Origin: an uncultured Chloroflexia bacterium
GTDB lineage: Bacteria; Chloroflexota; Anaerolineae; CG2-30-64-16
Assembly: GCA_963810095.1 (NCBI GenBank)
Contig: CAWEMM010000009.1
Location: 650,605 to 714,604, forward strand
Reading direction: 5' to 3'
Length of the DNA: 64,000 bases
Shown in pieces: positions 17,445 through 56,817 of this stretch. The first letter of the stretch is position 1; the number at the start of each line of letters is the position of its first letter. The translations under genes and the position numbers were made by a program. The notes under the pieces were generated by a model, which saw nothing but the letters and a program-made list of their open reading frames with translations, was not told the origin of the DNA and searched no databases.

Positions 17445-17528
17445 TCACCACAAAGACACCAAGGCACAAAGACGCACGAACGATTCTGAAGTTGAGTGAA
17501 GCTGCGTGTCTTCGTGTCTTTGTGGTGA
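17445..17528. repeat. 8-nt-periodic palindrome, family A copy 1
   Basis: TCACC-ACAAAGAC-ACCAAGGC-ACAAAGAC...GTGTCTTCGTGTCTTTGTGGTGA. Confidence 0.85.
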
Positions 17529-17564
17529 GTGCCTGGGTCTGCGGTCAATGTACCGGGGGGAGAG

Positions 17565-18980
17565 ATGACGGAAGCGTATCGTATTGAGAAGGACTCGATG
17601 GGGGAGATCAAAGTCCCCGCGAATGCGCTGTGGGGCGCACAGACGCAGCGGGCGGTCGACAATTTCAAGATCAGCGGGCGGCCGCCCTATCCCGCCTTCG
17701 TGTGGGCCTTCGCGCTCGTCAAGCGCGCGGCTGCCGAAGTGAACCGGGACCTGGGCTTGCTGGACGCGAGGGTGGCGGGCGCCATCGTGCAGGCGGCGCA
17801 GGAGGTGCTCGACGGGCAGCACGCGGACCAGTTCGTGGTCGACCCGTTCCAAGCCGGCGCGGGCACCAGCCACCACATGAACGTCAACGAGGTCCTCGCG
17901 AACCGGGCGAGCCAGATCCTCGGCTTTGCCCTGGACGACCCGAACAAGCCGGTAAAGGCGAACGATCACGTCAACATGGCGCAAAGCACCAACGACACCG
18001 TCCCGGCGGTCATTCGCCTCGGCGCGCTGTGGCGGCTCGACGAACTACTCGCGGCGGTCGACAACCTGGCGGACGCGCTTTCGGAAAAGGGGCACGCATT
18101 CGACGACGTGGTCAAGTCGGGCCGCACGCACCTCCAGGATGCCGTGCCCGTGCGGCTGGGGCAGGAGTTTGGGGCATACGCCCAGGCCGTGCGCTACGAC
18201 CGCGAGCGCATCGCAGCCGCGGGCGACCGCCTGCGCCGGGTCGGCATCGGCGGCACTGCCGCCGGCACGGGGCTCAACGCGCACCCCGAGTACCACGCCC
18301 GGATGGTGAAGCGGCTGAGCGAGCTGACCGGCTGGCCGCTGAGGTCAAGCGGCAATCTCTTCGAGCCCGTTCAGAACATGGCCGATGCGGCCGACTTCTC
18401 CGGCACGCTGCGGACGCTGGCAATCACGCTGACGCGCGTCGCGAACGACTTGCGCCTGTTGGCATCTGGCCCAAGCTCGGGCTTTGACGAAATCCGCTTC
18501 GCGCCCGCACAGCCCGGCAGCAGCATCATGCCGGGGAAAGTCAACCCGGTGTTCGCCGAGATGCTCAACATGACCTGCTTCCACGTCATGGGCTGCGACC
18601 TGACCGTGATGCTGGCCGCCCAGGCCGGGCAGCTCGAGGTGAACGTGATGATGCCCATCCTGGCCCACAACCTGTTCGAGGCGATGCACGTGTTCATTCC
18701 GGCCATCCGTCTTTTCACGGATCAGGGGGTGAAGCGGATCGAGGCGAACCGGCAGAAGGCGGCAGGTACGGTAGCGAGGAATGCCATCCTGGCGACCGCA
18801 CTCAACCCGGTGATCGGCTACATGAAGGCGGCAGAGATTGCCAAGAAGGCCGCCGAGAGCGACCGCTCCATTCGCGACGTGGTGGTTGAGGAGGGTATAC
18901 TGACACCGGAAAAGGCCGACGCACTGCTGGACGCTCGGGCGATGACCGAGGGCGGCATTATGGCGCAAAGCGAAGGGTGA
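17565..18980 (+). CDS. aspA: Aspartate ammonia-lyase (fumarase/aspartase family)
   Basis: RIEKDSMG, QAGAGTSHHMNVNEV, GRTHLQDA, GSSIMPGKVN; class II fumarase not excluded. Confidence 0.8.
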   Translation: MTEAYRIEKDSMGEIKVPANALWGAQTQRAVDNFKISGRPPYPAFVWAFALVKRAAAEVNRDLGLLDARVAGAIVQAAQEVLDGQHADQFVVDPFQAGAGTSHHMNVNEVLANRASQILGFALDDPNKPVKANDHVNMAQSTNDTVPAVIRLGALWRLDELLAAVDNLADALSEKGHAFDDVVKSGRTHLQDAVPVRLGQEFGAYAQAVRYDRERIAAAGDRLRRVGIGGTAAGTGLNAHPEYHARMVKRLSELTGWPLRSSGNLFEPVQNMADAADFSGTLRTLAITLTRVANDLRLLASGPSSGFDEIRFAPAQPGSSIMPGKVNPVFAEMLNMTCFHVMGCDLTVMLAAQAGQLEVNVMMPILAHNLFEAMHVFIPAIRLFTDQGVKRIEANRQKAAGTVARNAILATALNPVIGYMKAAEIAKKAAESDRSIRDVVVEEGILTPEKADALLDARAMTEGGIMAQSEG

Positions 18981-18981
18981 T

Positions 18982-19488
18982 ATGGATTCGCAGCTCCTGT
19001 TTCTGTTGGCGCTGATCGCCATGCTCGTGGGGCTCGCCGGCACCGTGCTGCCTGCGCTCCCCGGCATCGCGCTCGTCTGGATCGCGGCCTTGGTGTACGG
19101 CCTCCTGGACCGGTTCACCACCCTGCCGGTGGCCGCGTTTGTCGTGATCACGGTCCTGGCTGCCATCGGGCTGGCCGCCGACTTCTTCCTCACGCAGGCC
19201 GCGACGAAGGTCACCGGCGCCTCGTGGCAGGCGACCGCGGCCGGCGTGGTCGGTGGGATTGTCGGCATGATCGTCGGCTTCTTCGCCGGCGGCATTGGGA
19301 TCGGTCCGGGCGGCATCATCGGCGCGCTGATCGGCGTGGTCGGCGTGGAATACCTGCATCGCAAAGACCTGCGCGCGGCGATGAAGGCGGGCGGTGGCTG
19401 GCTGGCCGGCTGCCTGGCCTCACGCGCCATGCAGTTCATCATTGCCCTGCTCATGGTGGTCATCTTCGTCTGGCAAACCAGCACGTAA
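18982..19488 (+). CDS. DUF456 membrane protein
   Basis: GTVLPALPG, hydrophobic 168 aa. Confidence 0.85.
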   Translation: MDSQLLFLLALIAMLVGLAGTVLPALPGIALVWIAALVYGLLDRFTTLPVAAFVVITVLAAIGLAADFFLTQAATKVTGASWQATAAGVVGGIVGMIVGFFAGGIGIGPGGIIGALIGVVGVEYLHRKDLRAAMKAGGGWLAGCLASRAMQFIIALLMVVIFVWQTST

Positions 19489-19495
19489 GGGGCGT

Positions 19496-19569
19496 TCACC
19501 ACGAAGGTGCCCAGACACAAAGCTGGGAGCAGGCTTCGCGAGCCTTGGTGTCCTCGTGTCTTTGTGGTT
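19496..19569. repeat. Family A palindrome copy 2
   Basis: TCACCACGAAGGTGCCCAGACACAAAG...CCTTGGTGTCCTCGTGTCTTTGTGGTT. Confidence 0.75.
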
Positions 19570-19595
19570 CGCGTCTTGTCTCACCTGGAGGACCG

Positions 19596-20150
19596 TTGAA
19601 GGTATTGGTGGGTTCGCGTAACCCGGTAAAAGCCGGGGCGGTGCAGGATGTGTTTGGCCAGTACTTCCCCGGCGTCGAGGTGGACGCGATGGAGGTGGCT
19701 TCGGGCGTGCCCGCCCAGCCGGTTGGCGACGACACCTTCGCCGGCGCGCAGAACCGGGCGCTCGCGCTGGTGGCGCTGAACCGGGCGCAAGGGCTGGGGG
19801 CCAGCTACTGCGCGGGGCTGGAGGGCGGCATTGCCCGCCTGGCTGGACGCTGGTACACGTTCGGCGTCGTCTGCATTGCCGACGCCGGGGGTCAGTGCGG
19901 CATGGGCGTCTCGCCCATGTTCGAGCTTGCACCGGCCCTTTACGAACCATTGCTCGCAGGCGAAGAACTCGGCCATGTGGTCGACCGCCTGAGCGGCGAC
20001 CACAACTCCAAGCAGAAGGGCGGCGCCATCGCCTATCTCACCCAGGGGCGCGTTGGCCGGCGAGAACTGTACGCGCAAGGGGTCATCATGGCACTCGTGC
20101 CGTTCCTTAACCCGCCGATGTATTTCCCGGTGCCTTCGACGTCTGCGTAA
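19596..20150 (+). CDS. yjjX: Inosine/xanthosine triphosphatase
   Basis: VGSRNPVK, SGVPAQP, GLEGG, KQKGGAI; GGAGG RBS before TTG. Confidence 0.9.
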   Translation: MKVLVGSRNPVKAGAVQDVFGQYFPGVEVDAMEVASGVPAQPVGDDTFAGAQNRALALVALNRAQGLGASYCAGLEGGIARLAGRWYTFGVVCIADAGGQCGMGVSPMFELAPALYEPLLAGEELGHVVDRLSGDHNSKQKGGAIAYLTQGRVGRRELYAQGVIMALVPFLNPPMYFPVPSTSA

Positions 20151-20156
20151 TCCAGG

Positions 20157-21017
20157 TCAGCCGGCCAGCGTGCGGAGCGCCAGCCAGTCGTCCCCGTGCT
20201 CGGGCACACTCACGTCGTTTGTGATCAGGCCGGCGCCGACCAATTCCTCCACGGCTTTCCCCGTCTCCACCTTTCCCCACCCGAACAGCGTGACGACTTG
20301 CTTTGCCGGCGCTGCACCCACCGATCTCAAATACAGCTCCACGAGCCTCTCGCGCGCCTGTGACTGCCGGATGGGCCGGGCCTGGTCTGCGAGCCCGGGG
20401 TTCCACCGGTGGACGCATTCGTAGACGAACGCATACTTCCACCGCCCCACCTCGGCGACGCCCACGGGCTGCACCTTGAAGTCGGCCTGCAGGAACTCGA
20501 TCGCCCTGTTGAAGGGTGAATCGCTGGCCTTCGTCGTCATACGCGCCTGCCGGCGCAGCTCCTGCGTGTCGAGCGGGCCCTTCTCCAGCAGCACTTCGAA
20601 CACGGTCTTGGCGTCGAAGGTCATCTGCCCGGCTTTGTACTGGTCGAGATAGTCCTGCTCGGGTTCGCCATAGTTCTCGCTCAGCGCGTAGAAGTACGGC
20701 AGCACTCCGAGCGCGATCATCGTCGCTTTCTTGCGCAGCACCTTGGCGTAGTGCCACTTCCGCGCGGGCAGCAGTTCGTCCTTCCACCCCCACGTCACGT
20801 GGCCGGGATCGTCGTGCGCGTCGGGCACGGGGCGGTCGCCTGCCACCGCGCCCCAAAGCGAGGGCATGGTGACGTCCTTGATCGGCCAGAAGTAGACGAA
20901 ACCGCGCTCCTCGATGTAAGCTACTGCTTGTTCCTTGTTCCGCACCTTGAGCCCGGATTTGAGGCGGAAGGTGTCTTGCCGGTATTCGAGGATGCGCTCA
21001 AAGGCGATGTTGGTCAT
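20157..21017 (-). CDS. Winged-helix / AlkZ-YcaQ-like DNA-binding protein
   Basis: PSLWGAV, WGWKDEL, YAKVLRKKAT pattern. Confidence 0.65.
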   Translation of the reverse strand: MTNIAFERILEYRQDTFRLKSGLKVRNKEQAVAYIEERGFVYFWPIKDVTMPSLWGAVAGDRPVPDAHDDPGHVTWGWKDELLPARKWHYAKVLRKKATMIALGVLPYFYALSENYGEPEQDYLDQYKAGQMTFDAKTVFEVLLEKGPLDTQELRRQARMTTKASDSPFNRAIEFLQADFKVQPVGVAEVGRWKYAFVYECVHRWNPGLADQARPIRQSQARERLVELYLRSVGAAPAKQVVTLFGWGKVETGKAVEELVGAGLITNDVSVPEHGDDWLALRTLAG

Positions 21018-21138
21018 GGCGACGATTATAACGAGGTAAGCCTGGTTTCCGCCAGAAACGCGCTTTGTGGTTGGAACAAAAGCTGCTGTGGGCCTGTCTT
21101 TGTGTTTCAGTTCACGTTCGGGGCAAAGGAGCTCTCTG

Positions 21139-24100
21139 ATGATCACGCAGCAAAAACGCGCGCTCCGCGGCTTGCTGAACGGCGCCGGCGGATGGCTGCG
21201 CGACTGGTCTCTGCCGCGCCAGATGGCCGGCCAGGACGCCTTCAGCACGGCCGCCGAGAGCGCATGGTCGCGAACGTTCCGCCCCCGCATCGAGGACGCG
21301 GACCGGGTGGGCACCAGCATTTGCCCGTACTGTGCGGTCGGCTGCGCTCAGCTGGCGTACGTCAAGGGGAACGACATCATCCATATCGAGGGTGATCCGC
21401 GCAGCCCCATCAACCAGGGCACGCTGTGTCCCAAGGGCGCGGCCACCATCGGTTGGATCCACAGTCCGAACCGCCTCACGACCGTCAAGCACCGCATGCC
21501 GGGCAGCGACCACTGGGACGAGGTGCCGCTTGAGTGGGCCATGGAGCGCATCGCGCAGCTGATCAAGCAGACACGGGATGCCACCTTCGAGGAGAAGGCC
21601 CCGGACGGCAAGCGGACCAACCGGACGATGGCGATCGCGTCGCTGGGCGGGGCAACGCTCGACAACGAAGAGAACTACCTGATCAAGAAGCTGTTCGGCG
21701 GCGCGCTCGGGGTGGTGTGGATCGAAAACCAGGCCCGAGTCTGACACAGCGCCTCCGTGCCCAGTTTGGGCGCCAGCTTCGGCCGGGGGGCCGCCACCAC
21801 CGCGCAGTGGGACGTTGCCAACAGCGACTGCATCCTCATTATGGGCTCGAACATGGCCGAGTGCCACCCGATCGCCTTTCGCTTCGCCATGGAAGCCCGG
21901 CGGCGGGGTGCCACCCTCATTCACGTCGACCCGCGTTTCACCCGCACCTCGGCGCTGTGCGACATTTACGCCCCGATCCGCGCGGGCACCGACATCGCGT
22001 TTCTGGGCGGCATCATCCGCTATATCCTCGAAAATGACCTTTGGTTTCGCGAGTACGCGCTGGCATACACGAACATTGCGACCATCATCGACCCGGGCTT
22101 CAAGGACACGAGCGAGCTCGACGGCCTGTTCAGTGGGTGGGATTCGGAGAAGGCTCAGTACGATCTGGAAACCTGGCAGTACAAGAAAAAGGACGAGCCG
22201 GCCGCCCAGCGCGATCAAGCCGAGCAGACCGGCGAGGCTTACAGCGACCGTCTCGCCCGTGCCTACGGCCCGCCGCCCACCGATCCGACCCTCCAGGACC
22301 CGTACTGCATCTACCAGATTCTGAAGCGCCACTACGATGCTTACACTCCGGAAATGGTCGAGCGCATCACCGGCTGCCCGAAGGACGTCTTCCTCAAGGT
22401 GGCGGAGACTTTCGCGGCGGCCTCGGGACGCGAAAAGACCGCCAGCATCTGCTACGCGGTGGGCTGGACGCAACATACGGTGGGCGTGCAGAACATCCGG
22501 GCCGCTTCCATCATCCAGGCGCTGCTCGGCAACATCGGCCGGCCCGGTGGCGGCATCCTGGCGCTGCGCGGGCACTCCAGCATCCAGGGCAGCACCGACA
22601 TCCCGACGCTGTTCAACTTGCTCCCCGGCTACCTGCCGCAGCCGAGCGCGGCGGAGCCGGGCCACGACACGCTCGAAGAGTATCTCAAGACCGAACGGCT
22701 CGAGATGGGCTGGTGGCACAACTTCCCCAAGTACATGATCAGCCTGATGCGCGCGTGGTATGGCGACAACGTGGGCCCGCAGAATGAATGGGGCTTCCAG
22801 TGGCTGCCCAAGATCACAGGCGACCATTCGCAGCTGCCCATGATGTTCGCAATCAAAGACCGGGAGATCAAGGGGCTGCTCGTGCCGGGGCAGAACCCCG
22901 CGGTTGGCGGCCAGAACGCCCATCTCGTGCGGATGGGGCTGGCCAATCTCGAGTGGCTGGTCGTGCGCGACACGTTCGAAACCGAGACCGCGTCTTTCTG
23001 GTATGCGTCGCCGGAGATTGAGCGGGGGGAACTGCGCACGGCGGAGATTCAGACCGAGATCTTCCTGATGCCCGCGGCCCTGCCCGTCGAGAAAGACGGG
23101 ACGTTCACGAACACGCACCGGCTGATCCAGTGGCACGACAAGCTGGTCGAGCCGCCCGGCGACTGCCGTTCGGAAACCTGGTTTTACTACCACCTGGGCA
23201 GGCGCCTGAAGGAACTATACGCGGACAGCGCCAACTCGCGGGACGACCCGATCCGGGCCCTGCAATGGGATTACCCGGTCGAGGGTCCGAGCCGCGAGCC
23301 CAGCGTGGACGCGATCTTCCGCGAGGTAAACGGTTACACCTGGCCCAACCGGCAGCAAATCCCGGACTTCAAGCACCTCGAAGATGACGGCTCGACCGCG
23401 TGCGGCTGCTGGATCTACACGGGGGTCTATCCCGAGAACGACCGCAACCGGGCGCGTATGCGCCAGCCCGACGGGCCGGACGGGCCCGGCACTCATCTCA
23501 ACTGGGCGTTCGCCTGGCCGAGCAACCGGCGTATCATGTACAACCGGGCCTCGGCAGACCCGGAGGGCCGCCCCTGGTCCCCGCGGAAGCAGTACGTTTG
23601 GTGGGACGTGGCAGCGGGGAAGTGGCAGGGCTATGACGAGGTCGAGTTCATCATCGACAAGCCGCCCGACTACCAGCCTGACTGGGCCAAGCACCCCGTG
23701 GGCATGGATGCACAGGATGGCAAGTCGCCGTTTATGATGATCGAGGACGGGCGTGGCTCCCTGTTCGCCACGTCCGGCATCAAGGACGGCCCACTCCCGG
23801 CGCACTTCGAACCCGTCGAGAGCCCGGTCCGCAACGTGCTGTACGGGCAACAGGCAAACCCCGCGGCGAAGTATTGGGACCGGCCCGACAACCCCTATCA
23901 CGCGGTGGGCGACAAGCGCTATCCTTACGTCATCACCACATACCGCCTGACCGAACACCATGCCGGCGGCTCACCCACCCGCAACGTGCCCACCCTGGCC
24001 GAGCTCCAGCCCGAGGGCTTTTGCGAAATCCCGGAGGAACTTGCGGCGGAGCTGAGCATCAGCAACGGAGACTGGGTCGTGCTGGAGACCGCCCGCTACG

Positions 24101-24357
24101 AGATCGAGACCAAGGCGCTGGTGACGGCCCGCCTCCGGCCGCTCACCATTGACGGACGGACAGTCTACCAGGTCGGGATGCCGTGGCACTACGGTTGGCA
24201 GGGGTTTGCGACCGGCGCGCCGGCAAACGACCTCGCCGCGATGGCCGGCGACGCCAATACGAGCATCCATGAAGGCAAGGCGTTTACGTGCAACGTGCGC
24301 CCCGGCCGGCTGACCTTCCGCACGATGCGGATCGCCGGGCTCGAGCCAAAGCCCTGA
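21139..24357 (+). CDS. fdnG: Selenocysteine-containing formate dehydrogenase alpha subunit (Mo/W-bisPGD), Sec at codon 202
   Basis: CPYCAVGC Fe-S motif; ENQARV-TGA(21742-21744)-HSASVPSLG in frame with the downstream 866-aa ORF; TTYRLTEHH. Confidence 0.93.
21757..21773 (+). promoter_or_regulatory. Bacterial SECIS hairpin
   Basis: GTGCCCA-GTT-TGGGCGC stem with G first in the loop, about 20 nt after the UGA. Confidence 0.7.
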
Positions 24358-24528
24358 CCACCAAGGCACGCAGACACGAAGCTGCACCAAGAGTATCTGT
24401 CCCAGAATTAGCTGGGGCCGGTCTCTGACCGTGCCCCAGCTGGCGTACGAGACCGGCCAGAGCATTTTGGGCTAGGTTTATGAGCATAACCGGCTTTGTG
24501 AATCTTAGTGTCCTGGTGCCTTCGTGGT
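24357..24528. repeat. Family A palindrome copy 3, with about 100-nt structured insert
   Basis: ACCACCAAGGCACGCAGACACGAAG...CTTAGTGTCCTGGTGCCTTCGTGGT; inner GGCCGGTCTC...GAGACCGGCC hairpin. Confidence 0.75.
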
Positions 24529-24570
24529 GGTAAGACGCCGGCGCTACGGACGGAACTCAAGGAGCTAAGC

Positions 24571-25473
24571 GTGCATCAGCGCATTCGCAACCATACAGAC
24601 TCCATCCTGCCGGGGCTCATCCACGACGAGTCGGAGATCACCGCGGGCGTGAAGATCCGGCCGGGCCGCCGCTACGGCTTCTTTACCGACACGAGCGTCT
24701 GCATCGGCTGCAAGGCGTGTGAAGTCGCATGTAAAGAGTGGAACCAGCTTCCCGTCGACAACTACGGGCTGACGGCCATGAGTTACGACAACACACGCGG
24801 ACTCGGCGCGTCCACCTGGCGGCACGTCGCCTTTGCCGAACGCCTTGGCGCCGACGGCGATCCCGCCCCGACCCTGATGCCGCCCTTCCAGAGCGGCTGG
24901 CGTATGATGAGCGACGTCTGCAAGCACTGCTACCGCGCCGGCTGCCTGGAAGCCTGCCCGACAGGCAGCCTGTTCCGTACCGAGTTCGACACGGTCGTGG
25001 TCCAGCAGGACATCTGCAACGGCTGTGGGTACTGCGTCGTCTCCTGTCCTTTTGGCGTCATCGATATCAGCCACCACGACGGCAAGGCGCACAAATGCAC
25101 GCTGTGTTACGACCGGCTGAAGAGCGGCCTCGAACCCGCGTGCGCTAAGGCCTGCCCGACCGATTCGATCAACTTCGGGGAAGTGGACGCGCTGCTGGAC
25201 CGCGCCGAACGCCGGCTTGCCGAACTGCACGCGCTGGGCGTGCACAGCGCCTACCTTTACGGCGCGCCCGGCACCCCCGGCGCGACGGGCGAAATCGGCG
25301 GGCTCAACTGTTTCTTCCTGCTGCTCGACCGGCCCGAGATCTACAACCTCCCCGTCGCGCCCCTGCTCCCGCCTGCCCGCACCGGCGCGGGCTTGCTGCG
25401 GGGCATCCTGACCATGGCCGGGATTGGGCTCGCGGCCGCCGGGGTCTATCTCGCGGGGCGAAGGGACGACTGA
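24571..25473 (+). CDS. fdnH: Formate dehydrogenase beta (4Fe-4S) subunit
   Basis: CIGCKACEVAC, CKHC..AGC..ACP, CNGCGYC..SCP, KCTLC..ACAKACP; C-terminal TM; AAGGAG RBS before GTG. Confidence 0.9.
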   Translation: MHQRIRNHTDSILPGLIHDESEITAGVKIRPGRRYGFFTDTSVCIGCKACEVACKEWNQLPVDNYGLTAMSYDNTRGLGASTWRHVAFAERLGADGDPAPTLMPPFQSGWRMMSDVCKHCYRAGCLEACPTGSLFRTEFDTVVVQQDICNGCGYCVVSCPFGVIDISHHDGKAHKCTLCYDRLKSGLEPACAKACPTDSINFGEVDALLDRAERRLAELHALGVHSAYLYGAPGTPGATGEIGGLNCFFLLLDRPEIYNLPVAPLLPPARTGAGLLRGILTMAGIGLAAAGVYLAGRRDD

Positions 25474-25538
25474 CCCCAAGGGCGCCGGCGAGCTCAAGAT
25501 TTCTCGTGTATCAACGTGCCTTTGTGTCTTGGTGGTGA
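25473..25538. repeat. Family A palindrome copy 4 (degenerate)
   Basis: ACCCCAAGGGC...GTGCCTTTGTGTCTTGGTGGTGA. Confidence 0.6.
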
Positions 25539-25578
25539 GTCAGGTCGGCAGTGCCGGCACGCTCACAAGGAGTTGGCG

Positions 25579-27545: not shown

Positions 27546-27547
27546 CA

Positions 27548-27601
27548 GGCACAAGGGCACGAAGCAACGGCTCGCCGAGCCTGCCCTCGTGCCCTTGTGT
27601 C
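27548..27601. repeat. Family A palindrome copy 5
   Basis: GGCACAAGGGCACGAAG...CCTCGTGCCCTTGTGTC between convergent stops. Confidence 0.7.
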
Positions 27602-28649: not shown

Positions 28650-30813
<2,164 letters not shown>

Positions 30814-31034
30814 CAAGCCTTCCTGACCGGTCGCAGGGTAAGCGCGTCGCGCAACCCTCCACCGTCTCCGGCCCGTGAGGCGTCCGCGCGCGTATGCAAG
30901 GCTGCTGCCGGGACAGTTCGCTTCATTTGACGCCTCCTTTTGCGCCGCAACTGTTTGATTTCGTACAAACTGTGCTAAACTCAGCCGAAAGCCGGTTCAG
31001 GATCGGCCAAATCACGTAGGAGGAGAGGGGTCGG

Positions 31035-31417
31035 TTGATCGAGCAACTGCGCATGTTGGAGGAGTTTCACCGCGTCTTCGGCGCGCACCTGGAGCCGGCC
31101 CCGACCGCGGACCTGGACGGGCCGACCATTGCGCTGCGGGTGAGCCTGATCCAGGAGGAGTTGAACGAGTACCGGGAAGCCGCCGAAGCACACGACCTGG
31201 TCGCCGTCGCCGACGCGCTCAGCGACCTGATGTACGTCGTTCTCGGCACCTATGTCTCGCACGGGCTGCAGGATGCGGCCGAGGCCCTCTTTGCCGAGGT
31301 GCATGCCAGCAACATGAGCAAGCGCGACGCAGACGGCCGCGTCCTCTACCGCAGCGACGGCAAGGTGCTCAAGTCGAACCTCTGGCGCCCACCGATCTCA
31401 AGGCGATACTGGAATAG
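31035..31417 (+). CDS. MazG-like / PRA-PH NTP pyrophosphohydrolase (likely indel near 3' end)
   Basis: LIQEELNEY, ADALSDL.YV, EVHASNMSK, DGKVLK; natural end PPDLKAILE* (TAG 31415-17) needs a 1-nt correction. Confidence 0.8.
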
Positions 31418-31418
31418 C

Positions 31419-31502
31419 ACGCAGATCGGACTGACCGGACTGATTGCCTTGATCCAGCTAAAGCGAGATCAGGCGGATCAGTCCAATCAGTTCAATCCGC
31501 GT
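31419..31502. repeat. 9-nt-periodic palindrome, family B copy 1
   Basis: AC-GCAGATCGG-ACTGACCGG-ACTGATTGC-CTTGATC...GATCAGTCCAATCAGTTCAATCCGCGT. Confidence 0.8.
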
Positions 31503-31519
31503 TCCATTGAGCTTGTCAC

Positions 31520-32553
31520 ATGAAGCGACTCTACATCGCCTACACTGGTGGGACCATCGGGATGCGGCGAACGGCCGAGGGATATGCGCCCGCACCGGGA
31601 TTTCTCGCGGCGCAGATGGCCGTGATGCCCGAGCTCGTCGACCCCGCGATGCCCGCGTACGACCTTCACGAATACGAGCCGCTGCTCGACTCGTCCAACA
31701 TGCGGCCCGCCGATTGGGTGCGCATCGGTCGCGATATCGTGAAGCACTACGACGACTACGACGGGTTTGTGGTGCTGCACGGCACCGATACGATGGCCTA
31801 CACCGCGTCGGCGCTGCCCTTCTTCATCGGCGGCCTGGGCAAGCCCGTCATCATCACCGGGTCGCAGATCCCGCTCTCCGAAGTCCGCAACGACGCCCGC
31901 AGCAGCCTCGTCACCTCGATGCTTATCGCCAGCAGCGCTGCCGTTTCGGAGGTGTGCCTGTACTTTGGCAACAAGCTGCTGCGCGGGTGTCGGGCCACAA
32001 AAGTGCATGCCGACGGGCTGGACGCGTTCGATTCCCCGAACTATCCCCCTCTCGGGCGGGTGGGCGTCGATGTGGACATTGACACAACCCACATTCGGCC
32101 CGCGCAGCCGCGGACCCGTGCGCCTTGCCGAGCCCCGGCGTGAGGCGACGGTCGGCGCGTTCCGCCTGTTTCCGGGCATCTCGCCCCAGTTCCTGGCGAA
32201 CGTCCTCCAGCCACCGCTCGAGGGGCTGGTGCTGCAGGCGTACGGTGTGGGCAACGGCCCGGACCGCGACGCCGCGCTGCTCCAGGTGCTGCGTGAGGCG
32301 AGCGACCGGGGGGTCGTCGTCGTGGCTTGCACCCAGTGCCTGCGCGGTGCAGTGCATCTGGGCGAATACGCGACGGGCGCAGCGTTGGCCCGTGCCGGCG
32401 TCATCAGCGGCTACGACCTGACGACCGAGGCCGCGCTGTGCAAGCTCTACTACCTGTTCAGCACGGGCCACAAGCCGCGACGAGGTGCGCCGCTTGATGC
32501 GGCAGGATTTGTGCGGCGAGCTCACCGTGCCGCCCCGCCGGATGGTCTCGTAA
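31520..32553 (+). CDS. ansA: L-asparaginase type I (frameshifted)
   Basis: YTGGTIGM, LDSSNM, HGTDTMAY, TGSQIP, YGVGN; ends LCGELT. Confidence 0.9.
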
Positions 32554-32579
32554 GTGCAGGCGGAACGGTAACAGGAAGA

Positions 32580-32638
32580 ACCGAAGACACAAAGGCCCAT
32601 AAAGCTTGCGGAGCTTTGTGAAACTTAGCTTCTTTGGT
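32580..32638. repeat. Family A palindrome copy 6 (degenerate)
   Basis: ACCGAAGACACAAAGGC...CTTTGTGAAACTTAGCTTCTTTGGT. Confidence 0.45.
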
Positions 32639-32684
32639 ACTATTCTGTGAGTTCACCTTTTCGTGCGATTTCACCGGAGGAATG

Positions 32685-33472: not shown

Positions 33473-34664
33473 ATGTTGAAACGCCGCCTGACGCGCTTCG
33501 TTCTCGTCCTGCTGCTCATCGAGTTTCTCGACGAGCTCGTGTTCGGCGCGCGCGAGGCCGCCTGGCCGCTGGTGCGCAGCGACCTCGCACTTACCTATGC
33601 TCAGGTCGGCGTGCTGCTCAGTCTCCCCAGCCTCCTCGGCAACGCGATCGAGCCGTTTCTTGCGATCTTGGGCGACGTCTGGCGGCGTCGGGTGATCGTT
33701 CTGGGCGGCGGCGCCGTCTTCACGGCAGCCATCGCACTCACTGCCGTCAGCCAGTCTTTCGCCGGTCTGCTCTTTTCGTTCATCCTCATGTATCCTGCGT
33801 CCGGTGCGTTCGTCAGCCTGTCACAGGCCACACTGATGGACCTGGACGAGACCCGGCGCGAGCACAATATGGCGCGTTCGGACCTTCGCCGGCTCGCTGG
33901 GCGTGGTGCTGGGTCCGCTGGCGCTCGGCCTGGGCGCGGCGGCGCCTGCCCTGGGCTGGCGCGGCGTCCTCGGCGCGATGGCGGCACTGTCGCTGGTCCT
34001 GGTGCTCCTCAGCACCCGCATGCCCTATCCCGACGGCCGGGGGCCCGCCCACCGGCTCGACTTTTCCTCCGTGCTGGCGGGGCTGCGCGACGCGGTTGCA
34101 TCGTTAGGCCGGCCGGGCGTCCTGCGCTGGCTCGTGCTGCTCGAGTTCTCGGACCTCATGCTCGACGTGCTGCTGGGCTTCCTCGCGCTCTACCTGGTCG
34201 ACGTCGGGGGCGTAAGTGCCGGCCAGGCCAGCCTCGGGGTTGCCGTCTGGACCGGGGCCGGTCTGCTGGGCGACTTCGCGCTGATCCCGCTGCTCGAGCG
34301 CGTGCGCGGGTTGGCCTACCTGCGGGTCAGCGCGCTGCTGGAGTTGGTGCTATTCCCCCTCATGCTGCTGGTGCCGGGGTTCGTGCCGAAGGTAATCCTG
34401 CTCGGGCTTCTTGGCTTCTTTAACGCCGGGTGGTATTCGGTCCTGCAGGCGCAGCTCTACGCTTCATTGCCCGGCAAGAGCGGGACCGCACTGGCCGTGA
34501 AGAACGTGTCGGGCCTGATTGCGTCCGTAATCCCGCTCGTGCTCGGGCTTGCCGCCCAGCGTTGGGGCCTCGACGTCGCGATGTGGCTGCTGCTGGCCGG
34601 GCCGGTGGCGCTGGTGGTGGGGCTGCGGGGTGCAGGGTCTGGAGCGAAGGCGGAGGGTTCATAG
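33473..34664 (+). CDS. MFS transporter (one frameshift near 33880)
   Basis: Two hydrophobic halves in adjacent frames, 12-TM MFS pattern. Confidence 0.82.
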
Positions 34665-37516: not shown

Positions 37517-37527
37517 TCCCTGATAGC

Positions 37528-37610
37528 ACGCAGATTGAACCGATCAGGCCGGTCTTCATGATCCGCCGGAAGGAGATCATGGAGATCAGCCCAATCAGTT
37601 CGATCTGCGT
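37528..37610. repeat. Family B palindrome copy 2
   Basis: ACGCAGATTGAACCGATCAGG...GATCAGCCCAATCAGTTCGATCTGCGT. Confidence 0.8.
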
Positions 37611-37617
37611 CCCATCT

Positions 37618-39234: not shown

Positions 39235-39261
39235 GGCAACCTCCGGCGAAATGACGGACCT

Positions 39262-39355
39262 GCCACGAATTGCACGAATCGAACGAATTCGCCGAATTGG
39301 AAAAGCTTCCGTTTTCGATGGCAAATCGTCGAAATCAGTCTGATAATTCGTCGGC
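39262..39355. repeat. 9-nt-periodic element, ACGAAT variant (family C)
   Basis: GCC-ACGAATTGC-ACGAATCGA-ACGAATTCG-CCGAATTGG with degenerate inverted arm (...AATTCGTCGGC). Confidence 0.65.
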
Positions 39356-40780: not shown

Positions 40781-40864
40781 TAACCACAAAGACACCAAGG
40801 CTCAAAGCTACACGAAGTTTCACGGGACTTCGTGAACCTTTGTGTCTTCGTGTCTTTGTGGTTA
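40781..40864. repeat. Family A palindrome copy 7
   Basis: TAACCACAAAGACACCAAGGCTCAAAG...CTTTGTGTCTTCGTGTCTTTGTGGTTA. Confidence 0.85.
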
Positions 40865-44331: not shown

Positions 44332-44343
44332 GGAGCGAGCCCT

Positions 44344-44439
44344 AATAGGACGCAGATTCTACTGATCGAATTGATCTGGCTGATCCCCGAATTTAGAGAT
44401 CAGGCAAATCAGTCAGATCAGTACAATCTGCGTCCTATT
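44344..44439. repeat. Family B palindrome copy 3
   Basis: AATAGGACGCAGATTCT-ACTGATCGA-ATTGATCTG-GCTGATC...GATCAGTACAATCTGCGTCCTATT. Confidence 0.85.
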
Positions 44440-44830
44440 CATTTCCGCGGACGATATCCGGATAGCATCTGCGGCTGACCGTGAACAGGTCGCCGAGCGA
44501 GAGCGCTTTCCAGATCGGGCCCTTGACCCGCATCTGCCCGTTGCCCAGCGCGGTTTTCAGACTCAGCTCGCCCAGCAGGATCTTGTGGAACGTGTCGGCC
44601 GACATTTCGATTTCGAGGTCGGGTTTCACGCCGTTTTCGCCGAACGTCGTGCGCACAGGTGTCTCGCGGCCATGGATCACGATGTCTGCCGCGGGCCCAC
44701 TCGTGCGCATCAGGATGTTTATCTTGGACTTCCTGATCGCCTCTGTGGCGAGCGGGTAATTCTGCCGAACACACTCGAATAGCGCGCGCATGTTGGCATA
44801 ATACGACTCAGAATCACTGTAGAACGGCAT
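44435..44830 (-). CDS. SCP2 sterol/lipid-binding domain protein
   Basis: PDLEIEMSADTFHKILLGEL..KTAL..GQMRVKG. Confidence 0.82.
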   Translation of the reverse strand: MPFYSDSESYYANMRALFECVRQNYPLATEAIRKSKINILMRTSGPAADIVIHGRETPVRTTFGENGVKPDLEIEMSADTFHKILLGELSLKTALGNGQMRVKGPIWKALSLGDLFTVSRRCYPDIVRGNE

Positions 44831-47618: not shown

Positions 47619-47732
47619 GCTCTGCTCCTTACTCTGCTGAAACGGCCGAGGATCGCCTGATTATAGCAACGGACACACAAGCGCGTCAAGTGAATTTTGC
47701 GGCGGCCAGGTTGGCGAGGCCGCGACGGAGTA

Positions 47733-47761
47733 TTGACACGGTCTCACCCGTGTGCTATATT
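47733..47761 (+). promoter_or_regulatory. Sigma70 promoter for phasin-phaR genes
   Basis: TTGACA-17 nt-TATATT with extended TG. Confidence 0.7.
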
Positions 47762-47824
47762 AGGCATGACGCAGTGCGTCATCAGTTTTTCGCGGAGTAC
47801 GCCTGGACCACGAAGGAGGTCTCG

Positions 47825-48661: not shown

Positions 48662-48663
48662 CG

Positions 48664-49215: not shown

Positions 49216-49221
49216 AGAATC

Positions 49222-49281
49222 GGACGCAGATAACACGGATTCCCGCGCGTAGCGACGGGGCCGTCTGTGTTACCTGCGTCC
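49222..49281. repeat. Family B palindrome copy 4
   Basis: GGACGCAGATAACACGGAT...GTCTGTGTTACCTGCGTCC. Confidence 0.75.
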
Positions 49282-49329
49282 TCGTTCGAAACAGACACTC
49301 ACCCCGCGCGATAGACGGCGAGGGATAAG

Positions 49330-49424
49330 ATGGGACACTGATGCAACTGATTGAACTGATCAGCAGCGTTTCTCGTGAAAGAAGATCGTGACAATCAGTC
49401 GGATCAGTTGAATCAGCGTCCCAT
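49330..49424. repeat. Family B palindrome copy 5
   Basis: ATGGGAC-ACTGATGCA-ACTGATTGA-ACTGATC...ATCAGTCGGATCAGTTGAATCAGCGTCCCAT. Confidence 0.85.
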
Positions 49425-49460
49425 TCCACCCGTCGCTGTCTGAGAGCGTGGGGTGCAGGA

Positions 49461-50567: not shown

Positions 50568-50600
50568 CGGTGGGCGTGCCTTTCAAAGATCGTCACGGCC

Positions 50601-52433: not shown

Positions 52434-52488
52434 GAGGGGCGATTGTAGCACGAAACACAGGCTCGCCCGAAAAGCAGGCTCCCGTTTT

Positions 52489-52560
52489 CACCACGAAGAC
52501 ACCAAGACACGAAGCGGCCCTGGGGCTTTGTGAGCTTCGTGTCTTGGTGTCTTCGTGGTG
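52489..52560. repeat. Family A palindrome copy 8 (perfect 27-bp arms)
   Basis: CACCACGAAGACACCAAGACACGAAGC...GCTTCGTGTCTTGGTGTCTTCGTGGTG. Confidence 0.92.
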
Positions 52561-52564
52561 CATG

Positions 52565-53836
52565 CTACTCCAGCTCTTCGCGGATCTTCCAGTAGCTCTC
52601 GAGCCGCATCCGAGACAGCCGGCCCGCTCGCATGGCCGACTTCACGCCGCACCACGGCTCGCGGGTGTGCGTGCAGTTGGCATACTCGCAGCGCTCGGCG
52701 TGCTCGGCAAACTCTGGATAGTACTGCGGCAGATCGACCTGCTGCAGCCCGGCCAGCCCGTACTCGCGCATCCCGGGTGTGTCGACGACGAAGCCGCCCG
52801 CTGCGAGCGGATGAAGGCTGGCCTGAGTCGTGGTGTGCCGTCCCTCGTGCCTGCGGTCGCTCACCTCGCCCACTCGCAGGTTCAGGCCCGGCTCGACCGC
52901 GCTAAGCAGCGACGACTTGCCGACGCCCGAGAGCCCGGCGAGGGCCGTCGTGCGCCCGGCCAGCACGGCCCGCAGCTCGTCAAGGCCCCGGCCTTGCACC
53001 GCACTTGTCAGGATCACCTGGCAGCCCGCCAGCCGGTACGCCTGGGCAACCCCGTCGAGCTCCCACGGGTCTTCGGCCAGGTCCACCTTGTTGATGGCGA
53101 TGATCGGCGCCAGGTTGTGCCGCAGCGCGCCGATCAGGTAGCGGTCGACTAGTTCGGGCCAGAACGCCGGATTGCGCCAGGCCGCTACGATCAGCAGTTG
53201 GTCGACATTGGCGGCGATCACCTGCTGCTTGTATACGTTGATCGGATCGGGCCGGGCGAGTGCGCTGCGCCTGGGCAGGATCTCATCCACGATGCCCTGC
53301 TTGTGGCCGTTGTGCGAGACGATCACCTCGTCGCCCACGGCCAGCATGTTGCTGTAGCCGCTGTGTTCGATCCGCAGCGCCTTACGCAGCGTGCATACGT
53401 ACCGTCCCGCTGGCGTTTCAACCGTGTAGAGGCCGGTCGCGACCTCCACGACCGTGCCCGTCGACCTCTCGCGGCCTGCCTCCCGCGCCCCGTCAGATGC
53501 GGGGGCAGCGTCCGGCCCCTGTTGAGCCGGGTCCGAGGCAGTGGGAGGACGGGCAGTGACGCCCACGCCGTCGTGCAGCGGCGACCGGATCACCTTCGCC
53601 TGCCGCCATTCGGTCTCGCCTTCCGGCATGACGCGTTCCTGCGCGGCAATGTCGAGATCGTCGTACCCGTCCGGGTCGGCCAGGTAAGCCTCGGCCCAAC
53701 GCCGCGGCCGCACCTTGGAGGTCTTGTCGTTCTTCTTCGGAGCTTGTTTCACGCCCGACTCGCGGCGGGCCCGCTCTTCCATCCAAATCTGGATCGCCTT
53801 TTCCTGCCGGTTAGTAGCCAACTCTGGTTTCTCCAT
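52565..53836 (-). CDS. rsgA: Ribosome small subunit-dependent GTPase A with N-terminal extension
   Basis: AANVD, NKVD, GLSGVGKSS, GRHTT, DTPG, C-terminal CEYANCTH..EPWC Zn finger; start uncertain (ATG 53836 or TTG 53821). Confidence 0.93.
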   Translation of the reverse strand: MEKPELATNRQEKAIQIWMEERARRESGVKQAPKKNDKTSKVRPRRWAEAYLADPDGYDDLDIAAQERVMPEGETEWRQAKVIRSPLHDGVGVTARPPTASDPAQQGPDAAPASDGAREAGRERSTGTVVEVATGLYTVETPAGRYVCTLRKALRIEHSGYSNMLAVGDEVIVSHNGHKQGIVDEILPRRSALARPDPINVYKQQVIAANVDQLLIVAAWRNPAFWPELVDRYLIGALRHNLAPIIAINKVDLAEDPWELDGVAQAYRLAGCQVILTSAVQGRGLDELRAVLAGRTTALAGLSGVGKSSLLSAVEPGLNLRVGEVSDRRHEGRHTTTQASLHPLAAGGFVVDTPGMREYGLAGLQQVDLPQYYPEFAEHAERCEYANCTHTREPWCGVKSAMRAGRLSRMRLESYWKIREELE

Positions 53837-53851
53837 TGAGTTAAATGTAAA

Positions 53852-53974
53852 GGCCATGATGCGGCAAAGGCGGTTGTCAGAACCGCTTTGCGCCTCATGG
53901 CCCATTCCGTGCCCCGCTTCAGATGGGGGCAACAAAAAGGCCATGAGCACATGCAAGCACGCGCTCATGGCCTT
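53852..53974 (-). terminator. Twin hairpins (attenuator) in the rsgA 5' leader
   Basis: Minus strand AAGGCCATGAGC...GCTCATGGCCTTTTTGTT, then GGCCATGA...TCATGGCCTTTACATTT. Confidence 0.7.
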
Positions 53975-54001
53975 GACTCTACTCGGAAACCCTGATCTGG
54001 C

Positions 54002-54091
54002 TCAGGCTCCTGCAAGGTGGCGAGCGCTAGCGCCGCAAGTGTGCTTGCCGGAGCAAGCCAGGACTTGCGCGAGAACAGTCATATTAGACAT
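54002..54091 (-). CDS. Putative 29-aa leader peptide MSNMTVLAQVLACSGKHTCGASARHLAGA
   Basis: AAAGGAGG RBS 8 nt before ATG; lies between promoter and terminator upstream of rsgA. Confidence 0.6.
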   Translation of the reverse strand: MSNMTVLAQVLACSGKHTCGASARHLAGA

Positions 54092-54127
54092 ATCACTCGC
54101 CTCCTTTCGGAATCTTTGATTAGCCGT

Positions 54128-54155
54128 ACTATACGCCAATACGCAGGATTGTCAA
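54128..54155 (-). promoter_or_regulatory. Sigma70 promoter for leader-rsgA
   Basis: Minus strand TTGACA-16 nt-TATAGT. Confidence 0.7.
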
Positions 54156-54185
54156 GACGGTTGCACAGTCAAATGGCTCGTGAAC

Positions 54186-54917
54186 TTATTCCTGCAGGTA
54201 TACCGGCTCGCGGCGGTGGCTGCCATCGCACAACGGCTTGCAACTGGACTTCCCACAGTTACACAGCGTCACCCGGTTGCGCGTCTCGAGCGGCTTGCCG
54301 TCAGAGCGCACGATGGGGATGTTCCCGGTCACCCACAAGGGGCCGCGGATCGCGCCTTCCGAGGTGACCTCGACGGTCACCGCGATCTGCTGCGGCAGAT
54401 CGGGCTCAATGTCAGGTTCCCCGTGACGCATGGCATACATGAATGAGCCCGACGGGCAGCGCTCGATCATGGCGATTACCTGGCTGCGGATGGTGCTGTC
54501 GTCGGTCGAACCGGTCATTTCCTCCACGTTCGCCAGGCGGTTGCCGCAAAAACCCGCCTCGGTGCAGAGCGAATAGTCCCGGAAGACGACGATCCCCGTG
54601 CCCCCGGGCACCTCCTGGCGCCGCTCGGCCACCGTGTTCGTCTCCGCCGCCTCGGTGCCGTCGAAGGCGTTTTCGCGATGGGTCATGTCACAAAACGGCC
54701 ACGTAGCGGACTCGCCGCAGCGACACAACTCGTAGCTGTCGCCGGTTGCGATGGTGGCGTCCTTCCGCCAGGTCAGCGGCTCGCCGTGCTCCGACACAAC
54801 CTGCACCTTCCGCACAAACGGAATGGGCCCGTGAATGAGATACGAGCCGTCTGCTTCAACCTCAATCCACATCTTCGGTTCTTCCGGCGCTTCGCCTGTC
54901 ATGCCTTCTCGTGTCAT
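54186..54917 (-). CDS. CDGSH iron-sulfur domain protein (two CDGSH domains around a ferredoxin-like domain)
   Basis: LCRCGES..WPFCDMTH, LCTEAGFC...RCPSG, LCNCGKS..KPLCDGSH. Confidence 0.9.
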   Translation of the reverse strand: MTREGMTGEAPEEPKMWIEVEADGSYLIHGPIPFVRKVQVVSEHGEPLTWRKDATIATGDSYELCRCGESATWPFCDMTHRENAFDGTEAAETNTVAERRQEVPGGTGIVVFRDYSLCTEAGFCGNRLANVEEMTGSTDDSTIRSQVIAMIERCPSGSFMYAMRHGEPDIEPDLPQQIAVTVEVTSEGAIRGPLWVTGNIPIVRSDGKPLETRNRVTLCNCGKSSCKPLCDGSHRREPVYLQE

Positions 54918-55296
54918 GCCCTTTCTCGCTCCTTCCATCCCGCACGGGACCCGGGGCCCTGCCGGTCGACGGCCGTCGAGCTGCCGCCCCGCCTCCGCAT
55001 CGTACCCCAATCGACCTAAGTTTAGGGGAGAGGAGAAAGGTTGTCAATCCGCCTGGCCGGCCAGCCGGCCTCACCCTTGCCGCCGGGGCCTCAGGAAAAA
55101 TGGCCGCAATTGTGGCGGAACCAGGCGTTACAGATGAGACGTTACATACGTTAGAAACATTGGATGCCAGAATAATCACGATCGTGTCTTTCTTTGTGTG
55201 CAGGCAATGGGCATCCGGCAGCAGCGTACGCCACAAGGATCAGGCGAGGTCGTACGGTTTGAGCAGTGTAGTGGCAGTGTATTGGTGGAGGCTTCG

Positions 55297-56002
55297 ATGG
55301 GTTGGCTTTTTCGGCTGATCGGCGGATTACTCCGGACGGTCATCGTGGTCGTCCTCGTCGCAGTGGTCCTGCTGGTGGGCCTCTCGTATCTCGACAGCGC
55401 CGGCATCACCCAGGGCAGGGTCGATCGCGTCCTGGCGGATACCGTCGGTCCGCGGGTTGCCACGGCGGTCGAGCAGGGCGGCGGGACGGTGCTCGACCAG
55501 GCCGCAGGCATTCTGCGCAGCCTGCTCAGTCGCGCCGACCAGGCGCTTGGGCAGGGGGTGCTGGCGGTCAGCACGCCCGAGGGCCAGCCCGCAGCCAGCG
55601 AGTCTTACGAGGCAGACAGCCGCGCCCTGCTCGATAGCATCAATCAGTACCGGGCGTCGAAGGGCTTGGAGCCCTGGCAGTGGGACGCCCGGCTCGCGAC
55701 GTTCGCCCAGACGCGCGCGGACGACATGATCGCCGCGAAACTACTTCAGCCACCACGACCCGGCGACGGGCGACATTCTGCTCGGCCGGCTGCCCACCCT
55801 GGTCTCGGTCGGGGAGAACCTCTTCCAGGTCTCCGGCCCGGCCGTGCGGTTCATGCGCAACATCAACGGCGAGGTGCTCAAGGGGTGGCAGAACAGCCCG
55901 AGCCACAACGAACTGCTGCTGGCGGGCAACATGACCCGGGGCGGCCTGGCGTTTGCGCGCACCGAGACGCGCATCATCGCGGTGCTGATCGCCGCGGAGT
56001 AG
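55297..56002 (+). CDS. Membrane-anchored CAP (SCP/YkwD) domain protein (frameshift near 55738)
   Basis: INQYR..KGL.P, then in shifted frame YFSH, GENL, W.NSPSH..LLL. Confidence 0.82.
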
Positions 56003-56004
56003 AA

Positions 56005-56093
56005 CTAAACCAGTCGCACAATGAGCTTACGCATGTAGGGTGAGCTTTAAGCTCACCCTACAATGAGTTCTTTCCACTTTGCGATTAGTTTAG
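56005..56093. mobile_element. MITE-like element carrying an internal GTAG REP palindrome
   Basis: Imperfect terminal inverted repeats CTAAACCAGTCGCA / TGCGATTAGTTTAG; internal TGTAGGGTGAGCTT-T-AAGCTCACCCTACA. Confidence 0.5.
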
Positions 56094-56129
56094 CAGTTCA
56101 CCTCGCGCTGCTGGACGGCTAGGGATGGA

Positions 56130-56231
56130 ATGGGACACAAATTGAACCGATCTGCCCTGGCTCTCTGAAAGTAATCACGTGAATCGGGCGGCGTCAAAGG
56201 CGCGGGCGATCAGTTCAATCCGACGTCCTAT
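56130..56231. repeat. Family B palindrome copy 6 (degenerate)
   Basis: ATGGGACACAAATTGAACCGATC...GATCAGTTCAATCCGACGTCCTAT. Confidence 0.65.
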
Positions 56232-56669
56232 CTATTTCAGCTTGTAGCGATAGATGTTGGTCTCGCGGCGCTCGAAGCCAACGCGCTGGTAGAGCCGGTT
56301 TGCGGCCTCGCGCGACGGGCGTGACGTGAGGTCTACGGTCGTCGCACCCGCGTCCTGAGCCACCCGGAGCGCGTGCCGGGTGAGCGCTTCGCCCAGCCCT
56401 TGCCCCCGCTGGCTGCCGTCCACGATCACGTCCTCGATCCATGCGCGCAGCCCCGTCGGAATCCTGAACAGTGCCAACGTCAGGCTGCCCACGATCTCCC
56501 CCACCTCGTTCCAGGCAATCAAAAGCGTGATCGCGGGTGAGTCGACCATCTCTTGCAGTTGATCGCGGGTGGGGGCCGGATTTGACGACGACAGTTGCGG
56601 AACGAGCCGCGCCATCGCGGCGAGCAGTTCGTCGGTGACTTCGGTGGCCTTCTCAATTCGGTGCGCCAT
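56232..56669 (-). CDS. GNAT N-acetyltransferase
   Basis: WIEDVIVD..QRGQGLG, ANRLYQRVGF. Confidence 0.92.
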   Translation of the reverse strand: MAHRIEKATEVTDELLAAMARLVPQLSSSNPAPTRDQLQEMVDSPAITLLIAWNEVGEIVGSLTLALFRIPTGLRAWIEDVIVDGSQRGQGLGEALTRHALRVAQDAGATTVDLTSRPSREAANRLYQRVGFERRETNIYRYKLK

Positions 56670-56744
56670 GCTTACCCTCCGTTGGTTGCGGATGCGAGAG
56701 GGAGTATAGCGGGGTCACCCCAGGCGGTCAAAGCAACGGACGTT

Positions 56745-56817
56745 AACCACAAAGGCACGAAGACTCGAGGGTTCACGACGACTTTGTGATACTTCGTGCC
56801 TTCGTGTCTTTGTGGTT
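56745..56817. repeat. Family A palindrome copy 9
   Basis: AACCACAAAGGCACGAAGAC...CTTCGTGCCTTCGTGTCTTTGTGGTT. Confidence 0.85.

Follow-up and report, generated by a model that had tools for sequence, protein, structure and literature searches.

Family A palindromes in the window

The window analysed here is a 64,000-nucleotide (nt) stretch of contig CAWEMM010000009.1 (positions 650,605 to 714,604 of the forward strand; assembly GCA_963810095.1) from an uncultured Chloroflexia bacterium. In line with an Anaerolineae-like source, its AceK has its nearest named homologues in Anaerolineae and Ardenticatenaceae. The window contains nine dispersed palindromes, referred to as family A, whose arms are built of degenerate 8-bp units (ACVAAGRC). 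In other genomes, the same arms were found to be physically linked to genes encoding GxxExxY proteins, an orphan family of predicted nucleases. An initial annotation, made from the sequence alone, had listed nine copies, and all of them were located in the window:

Copy 1, 17445..17528: intact, empty; in the gap separating the divergent metalloenzyme and fumC genes, 36 nt ahead of the fumC start, no stop codon nearby; fold z -6.5
Copy 2, 19496..19570: decayed; 7 nt past the DUF456 stop; fold z -0.8
Copy 3, 24355..24530: left arm overlaps the TGA of a molybdopterin oxidoreductase gene (fdnG-like); loop holds a nested foreign palindrome
Copy 4, 25471..25540: decayed left arm overlaps the TGA of an Fe-S subunit gene (fdnH-like); fold z -0.65
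Copy 5, 27548..27601: short, decayed; 2 nt from the GDSL stop and ~6 nt from the convergent aldo-keto reductase stop
Copy 6, 32579..32640: decayed; 25 nt past the probable asparaginase stop at 32551-32553
Copy 7, 40781..40864: intact; 1 nt past the aceK stop; promoter-like site for aceA downstream; fold z -9.6
Copy 8, 52488..52561: perfect 27-bp arms (52489-52560); 3 nt past the rsgA stop; fold z -9.9
Copy 9, 56744..56818: intact; 7 nt past the stop of a DUF7379-domain gene; promoter-like site for a GNAT gene downstream; fold z -6.4

Tandem pairs of ACVAAGRC octamers (≤1 mismatch) occurred 16 times in the window, compared with a mean of 0.08 and a maximum of 1 in 100 dinucleotide shuffles, and strict inverted octamer pairs ≤250 nt apart occurred six times, compared with none in 100 shuffles; copies 4, 5, and 6 are too degenerate to satisfy the strict inverted-pair rule. 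A stop codon lies ≤10 nt away from seven of the nine copies (P=7e-7; 8.2% of the intergenic DNA of the window is that close, based on curated gene ends), the exceptions being copies 1 and 6. This proximity and the perfect arms of copy 8 were both as previously annotated. The asparaginase gene preceding copy 6 is frameshifted in this assembly. The loops differ between copies; most copies are of similar length, and a fourth unit that is specific to their lineage is common to them. Copies 2 and 4 folded no better than shuffles. A second, unrelated palindrome resembling a repetitive extragenic palindromic (REP) element (~24411-24462) occupies the loop of copy 3 and brings the length of this copy to 175 nt. 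Small palindromes of this kind also break up arms or the gene in three of the loci described below (L027, at 5840-5900; L020; L083).

No U-tract follows any of the eight copies with a known transcription direction, in agreement with the proposal that the copies are not ordinary terminators. The accompanying statement that several copies sit inside operons did not hold for copies 7 and 9: promoter-like sites occur directly 3' of both, so that not all copies are intra-operon. [quoted passage not shown] At the nine copies, no Rfam family reached its gathering score; copy 7 gave only sub-threshold matches to microRNA hairpins.

Occurrence of the arms in other genomes

Species genomes were scanned once by exact match to one 25-nt arm pattern, which yielded at least 124 loci (denoted by L numbers), 80 of them with long flanks. 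These loci are a sample, not a census, and the counts below refer to them. Their hosts included Chloroflexota, Planctomycetota, Acidobacteriota, Bacteroidota, Cyanobacteriota, several proteobacterial classes, and two archaea. Most copies were short empty palindromes, hereafter called shells. Among 130 distinct arms, 63 were paired at ≤200 nt, 2 at 201-350 nt, and 6 at >350 nt; the other 59 had no partner when the strict rule was applied, in 31 cases because too little flank was available. Partner arms kept their invariant positions at 0.86-1.0 across the first 17 nt, and two degenerate positions varied freely, with the limitation that detection favours good arms. Near-identical shells were present at different loci of a single genome (the L064 pair; L016/L036/L056). 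A blastn search with the arms gave six chance-level matches in plasmids and none in phages.

Two variants were also observed. Loci L016, L036, L046, and L056, all in one Planctomycetota genome, are multi-copy hybrids of ~220 nt with family A arms and weak GxxExxY N-terminal remnants, and some of them carry an outer second terminal palindrome. In Acetobacteraceae (L008, L061, L077, L124), a lineage-specific stretch of ~14 complementary bases lengthens the arms beyond the terminal ACC.

GxxExxY genes between the arms

One GxxExxY open reading frame was enclosed in three of the six long arm pairs (L004, L027, L077). A GxxExxY profile search against the 124 listed loci and the window produced five hits, every one touching an arm: the above three with both arms, L059 with the 5' arm only, and L083, a C-terminal fragment followed by an arm. 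As a chance background, 6.9% of the locus DNA lies ≤150 nt from an arm end. In the three complete cassettes, the gene stop is followed within a few bases by the 3' arm, and the cassette arms align position for position with the arms of the window.

Of the 120 homologues closest to the L027 protein, 62 start with a peptide translated from the left arm; this arm-encoded peptide was found in 0 of 120 AceK sequences and in 3 of 5974 background windows used as controls. In a second, distant GxxExxY subfamily, A-type peptides were detected in 0 of 120 proteins, which is partly expected because its N-termini are short, and peptides of a 9-nt-arm type were detected in 5 of 120; the latter were absent from the first set of 120. 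In a plasmid collection, all seven GxxExxY records had periodic repeats beside the gene. Judged by eye, four of them had inverted arms, one was bordered on either side by empty palindromes, and two had same-direction repeats. The nuclease gene ran in the same direction as the upstream gene in nine of ten cases with a called neighbour. No match to GxxExxY was found by tblastn in phages.

The arms are thus physically linked to the GxxExxY nuclease gene, as the initial annotation had noted for similar palindromes, and three loci carry the reading frame within the loop. Four-helix-bundle genes, named in the same statement, were not found among 113 neighbouring locus proteins (a subset of the genes of the loci) scanned with Pfam, nor was a recurring integrase or transposase or a Y1 transposase. 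Composite layouts were also present, comprising palindrome-gene-palindrome (L125), shell plus gene plus arm (L027), and a single arm (L059).

The GxxExxY protein

The protein encoded between the arms belongs to TIGR04256 / PF13366 (PDDEXK_3) and is ~130 aa long. All four proteins examined scored 134-150 bits against TIGR04256, for which the curated cut-off is 35, and the GxxExxY motif was present in 118 of 120 homologues. A structure model with a predicted local distance difference test (pLDDT) score of 92 was built from a 79-sequence alignment. Its nearest structures were mostly PD-(D/E)XK nucleases, including BpuSI and Cas4 SSO0001 (Z 7.7 each) and Hjc (Z 6.5); Foldseek returned no match at E ≤0.001, and no solved structure of a relative was found by sequence search. 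E41, D81, and E91 are invariant and K93 is conserved at ≥90%; judging from the superfamily motif, these four are putative catalytic residues. By its modelled fold and its E...D...ExK residues, the protein is a predicted PD-(D/E)XK nuclease.

The family comprises 15,290 clusters at 50% identity (E ≤1e-10), and in PMC3424549 it is listed as having an unknown function and multiple transfers. Many top representatives (e.g., P0241-P0256) contain two tandem GxxExxY domains (260-295 aa), which hints at an enzyme acting as a dimer.

Filled and empty junctions

Cassettes were present or absent at operon junctions of related organisms. The fabD stop of Sphingomonas parapaucimobilis is followed after ~5 nt by a cassette whose 8-nt arms are variant, and fabD and fabG are 464 nt apart; the corresponding junction of S. 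paeninsulae is 33 nt long and has no arm. In Bacteroides finegoldii, a cassette with 9-nt arms lies 1-2 nt past the radA stop, and the gap between radA and the FAD gene is 478 nt; this junction measures 13 nt in Parabacteroides distasonis and holds an unrelated gene with no arms in Phocaeicola. At both the fabD-fabG and radA junctions, the empty form lacks the whole cassette, arms included. In L027, the cassette lies ~5 nt past the sufB stop, and the sufB-sufC span was 500-650 nt shorter in 14 of 15 listed records. The stretch between sufB and sufC is occupied by a GIY-YIG nuclease gene in Azospirillum lipoferum (NC_016623.1).

In the comparison of orthologous loci proposed in the initial annotation, empty sites were seen for these related variant-arm cassettes; all-against-all blastn of the listed loci gave no orthologous filled/empty pair and no match to the window. 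An intermediate of internal deletion was recognised in L083, where the 3' arm is preserved together with a portion of the 5' arm (at the edge of the locus) and ~30 C-terminal codons that are still recognisable (E 3e-11). In addition, L016 and L036 contain weak GxxExxY N-terminal remnants (E 0.2-0.4).

Arm sequence, flanks, and position relative to genes

A profile search yielded 88 paired elements, of which 9 mis-paired or duplicate ones were removed to leave 79. Their end profile, T-T-A/C-ACC, contains no GTAG or CGTC tag, which agrees with the earlier exclusion of GTAG REPs, and weak extra complementarity reaches ~10 nt outside the terminal ACC. The two arms matched at 199 of 376 variable positions, above permutations (44%). 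This concordance was considered as covariation and rejected, because off-register positions of the same elements matched equally often (320 of 575, compared with 191 of 359 in register), which reflects genome base preference. Of 69 deviations at invariant positions, one was compensated; on the transcribed strand, G·U was about as frequent as A·C (56 vs 54; 39 elements of known direction); and the two arms of one copy were no more alike than the units within it. What is shared across phyla is the sequence, not the structure.

Direct repeats of 3-8 nt flanking the 79 elements were not above those in permuted flanks, so that no target duplication was detected, although old copies could have lost it; 4-nt repeats numbered 21 vs 15.8 in permuted flanks (p 0.075). 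Since the arms lack covariation, do not favour G·U over A·C, and show no target duplication, the palindromes behave as arrays of DNA-binding sites rather than as RNA structure. The RNA-structural branch of the initial annotation was thus not borne out, and its other branch, a mobile repeat or periodic protein-binding scaffold with a cognate protein elsewhere, gained support from the GxxExxY link.

Gene calls were available for 55 non-window elements, 44 of which were kept; the other 11 lacked a neighbour, lay in a gap >600 nt, or fell inside a called gene. The enrichment behind stop codons recurred in these genomes, with 21 of 44 elements lying ≤20 nt from a stop (null 0.10). The 44 elements comprised 34 in co-directional, 8 in convergent, and 2 in divergent gaps (divergent null 0.23), and in 27 of the 34 co-directional gaps the element was nearer to the stop than to the start.

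Proposed element and alternative explanations

We consider it probable, with some reserve, that a minimal mobile element with a promoterless GxxExxY gene settles behind stop codons, and that the nine palindromes are its non-autonomous derivatives, which have no gene. The full element, of ~0.45-0.65 kb, would consist of a left arm, a promoterless gene for the ~130-aa GxxExxY PD-(D/E)XK nuclease, and an inverted right arm, each arm being a row of 2-4 degenerate 8-bp sites (ACVAAGRC) that ends in ACC. Several nuclease molecules may bind the periodic sites, and the element ends, paired as duplex ends or as a DNA hairpin or cruciform, would then be cut, with host repair finishing the insertion without target duplication. 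Loss of the gene would leave arm-loop-arm shells that could still be copied in trans. Copies may accumulate behind stops because the promoterless gene can be expressed there by read-through and because the promoter and ribosome site of the next gene are spared. Effects on mRNA, if any, would be secondary.

Several observations weigh against this account. The binding, cutting, and moving of the arms by the nuclease, as well as the reason for the position behind stops, are what we infer. No GxxExxY gene or remnant was found in the 64-kb window, ordinary or uncharacterised genes lie within the remaining three of the six long arm pairs, and 28 arms with ample flank lacked a partner under the strict rule. 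The A peptide pattern occurred in just 6 of 150 distant representatives, 5 of them convincing. The protein tree was poorly resolved (a quick version, with 106 of 174 branches open) and the A-arm label needed eight changes on it, so that co-evolution of arms and protein is not established. The empty sites concern variant-arm cassettes, not the window copies, in relatives at 67-75% identity, which are too distant to fix the exact ends or the direction of gain or loss. The gene calls at the loci came from our own simple finder, in which starts tend to be called late. Every fold Z-score was <8, the best (7.7) being middling on fold alone, and Pfam agrees with the assignment. Further, a lone PD-(D/E)XK domain cuts DNA but is not known to join it, and host repair or another factor would therefore be needed.

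Among the alternatives, the strongest, which we still regard as rather unlikely, is that some other factor spreads the palindromes, be it a host recombinase, a different transposase, or gene conversion driven by hairpins, and that the GxxExxY gene is a trapped passenger or homes into existing palindromes by cutting. PD-(D/E)XK proteins include homing-type endonucleases. The composite layouts of L125 and L027 and the single arm of L059 would fit such a history, as would the occurrence of A-type arms with proteins on several tree branches and the excess of shells over filled copies (63 short vs 3 filled pairs among the 130 arms). Against it stand the arm-encoded N-termini of 62 of 120 homologues; the empty junctions, which lack the entire cassette with its arms; and the absence of a recurring integrase or transposase among the neighbouring proteins scanned.

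It is improbable that the shells are immobile scars of full elements, left by later deletion of the gene between the arms, and that the stop position merely reflects the insertions tolerated by the host. Differing loops among the window copies, deletion intermediates such as L083, the decay of copies 2, 4, 5, and 6, and the promoter-like sites after copies 7 and 9, which would make the slot behind a stop the harmless one, are compatible with scars. In contrast, the constancy of invariant positions in partner arms beside freely varying degenerate ones, the near-identical shells at different loci of one genome, and the common fourth unit and mostly similar lengths of the window copies argue against scars. 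Least of all, and with a very low probability, the palindromes may exist mainly as RNA hairpins by which polycistronic mRNA is stabilised, processed, or uncoupled, as PMC3733652 reports for REPs as well as MITEs (miniature transposable elements with inverted repeats): intact copies fold at z -6 to -10 and lie behind stops in the window and beyond, but covariation and a G·U preference were lacking, two copies folded no better than shuffles, and sequence rather than structure is common across phyla.

A broader claim built on the GxxExxY element is more doubtful: it may represent an undescribed minimal class of transposable elements (~0.45 kb) in bacteria and archaea, whose sole protein, a ~130-aa PD-(D/E)XK nuclease, would assemble on arms of 8- or 9-bp periodicity. 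Its subfamilies would read different units as orthogonal protein-arm pairs, of which families A, B, and C of the window would be three (B and C are described below), and insertion would be actively steered just past stops without duplication. The repeat family is real, widespread, tied to an orphan nuclease family, and apparently undescribed. In the literature outside subscription journals and supplements, no description was found that links the GxxExxY family to flanking repeats or a mobile role; the main text of PMC5704561 mentions neither GxxExxY nor palindromes. The proposed element offers a testable function and substrate for a very large orphan nuclease family, and an explanation for a repeat with nine copies in 64 kb and two sister families.

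Sister repeats and other features of the window

Two further periodic palindrome families and one riboswitch were identified in the window:

Family B, 31413-31508, 37522-37616, 44343-44440, 49329-49426, 56128-56231, and a short copy at 49222-49268: second periodic palindrome family
Family C, 39250-39350: decayed palindrome with a third periodic unit, just past the aceA stop
FMN riboswitch, 8378-8575: 81 bits, the sole Rfam family at gathering score in the window

Family B has a period of ~9 nt, lies mostly at stop codons, and folds at z -5 to -11. No significant copy was found outside the window with its profile; by eye, its right arm resembles the flanks of GxxExxY genes in L129/L130. The genes aceK, aceA, and aceB are each trailed by a different family (A, C, and B, respectively).

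Downstream of the FMN riboswitch, an ABC transporter with an NMT1/THI5-like binding protein is encoded, which is probably responsible for riboflavin uptake. Frameshift-split genes occur at 21139-24357, 9533-11386, 28650-30816, 31035-32553, 33473-34664, and 56826-59238; the split genes are fdnG-like, ABC transporter, glgX, pyrophosphohydrolase, asparaginase, major facilitator superfamily, and DUF7379 genes. The splits are most likely long-read sequencing errors, and in the fdnG-like gene the break at 21744 runs into a stop, a potential selenocysteine codon. A cluster at 56826-62700 contains two caspase-domain genes, a DUF7379-domain gene, and a metallo-beta-lactamase-fold gene, and may resemble protease-based conflict or signalling systems.

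Comparison with known systems

Three familiar categories differ from family A in basic features. Intrinsic terminators have a short GC stem and a U-tract, CRISPR arrays consist of regular, short-spaced direct repeats, and structured cis-regulatory RNAs show covariation, strand-specific wobble, and an Rfam match; in family A, no U-tract, no such spacing, and no covariation, wobble bias, or Rfam match at gathering score were found. Integron attC sites are marked by core/inverse-core heptamers, cassette arrays, and an integrase; AAC is present at only about half of the family A ends, and the neighbours are housekeeping operon genes.

Two other repeats share some traits with family A. The hupL MITE of Ca. 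Thiomargarita, for which an origin from PD-(D/E)XK_2 (YhgA/Rpn) genes was proposed, is likewise small and has been provisionally connected with a PD-(D/E)XK nuclease gene, but it has 10-bp direct and 19-bp inverted repeats and its enzyme belongs to another family, PF12784 (PMC4853749). The TAACTGA heptamers of Beggiatoaceae and Cyanobacteria are, like family A, short periodic intergenic repeats with a patchy cross-phylum spread, and their author suspected a mobile binding protein; in contrast to family A, they are 7-nt direct repeats located before start codons, and a cognate gene was not identified there (PMC4679880).

Other parallels are REP/REPIN elements with their REP-associated tyrosine transposases (RAYTs) and the terminal inverted repeat (TIR)/TIRYT 'TIRtrons'. 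As described in PMC3733652 and PMC3337134, these are abundant extragenic palindromes that mostly lie downstream of genes and are depleted where genes diverge; their cognate enzyme gene, which is rare, sits between inverted repeats of the same kind. All of this resembles family A. Family A differs from REP/RAYT in that the genes between its arms encode TIGR04256 proteins, with a predicted PD-(D/E)XK enzyme instead of an HUH tyrosine transposase, in that its arms are periodic arrays of degenerate sites without a GTAG/CGTC tag and not small hairpins, and in that one arm is found across many phyla and archaea. Insertion sequences (ISs) and MITEs (PMC3184786) share with family A terminal inverted repeats around a non-coding core below ~300 nt, gene-less forms of 50-230 nt, a longer one-gene form, and filled and empty sites. 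Compared with these, family A has no detected target duplication, carries a PF13366 gene rather than one for a DDE transposase, and shows no greater likeness between the two arms of a copy than between the units in it, and its loops are not shared between most copies.

In its workings the family A system resembles RAYT/REPIN or IS/MITE pairs, yet it does not pass the tests that define them: it has no GTAG/CGTC tag, no HUH or DDE enzyme, and no detected duplication. A layout in two parts is as such also that of RAYT/REPIN, and the family A element is putatively mobile. If the GxxExxY nuclease does move the arms, it would be a very small mobile-element enzyme and would belong to none of the DDE, HUH, serine, and tyrosine classes.

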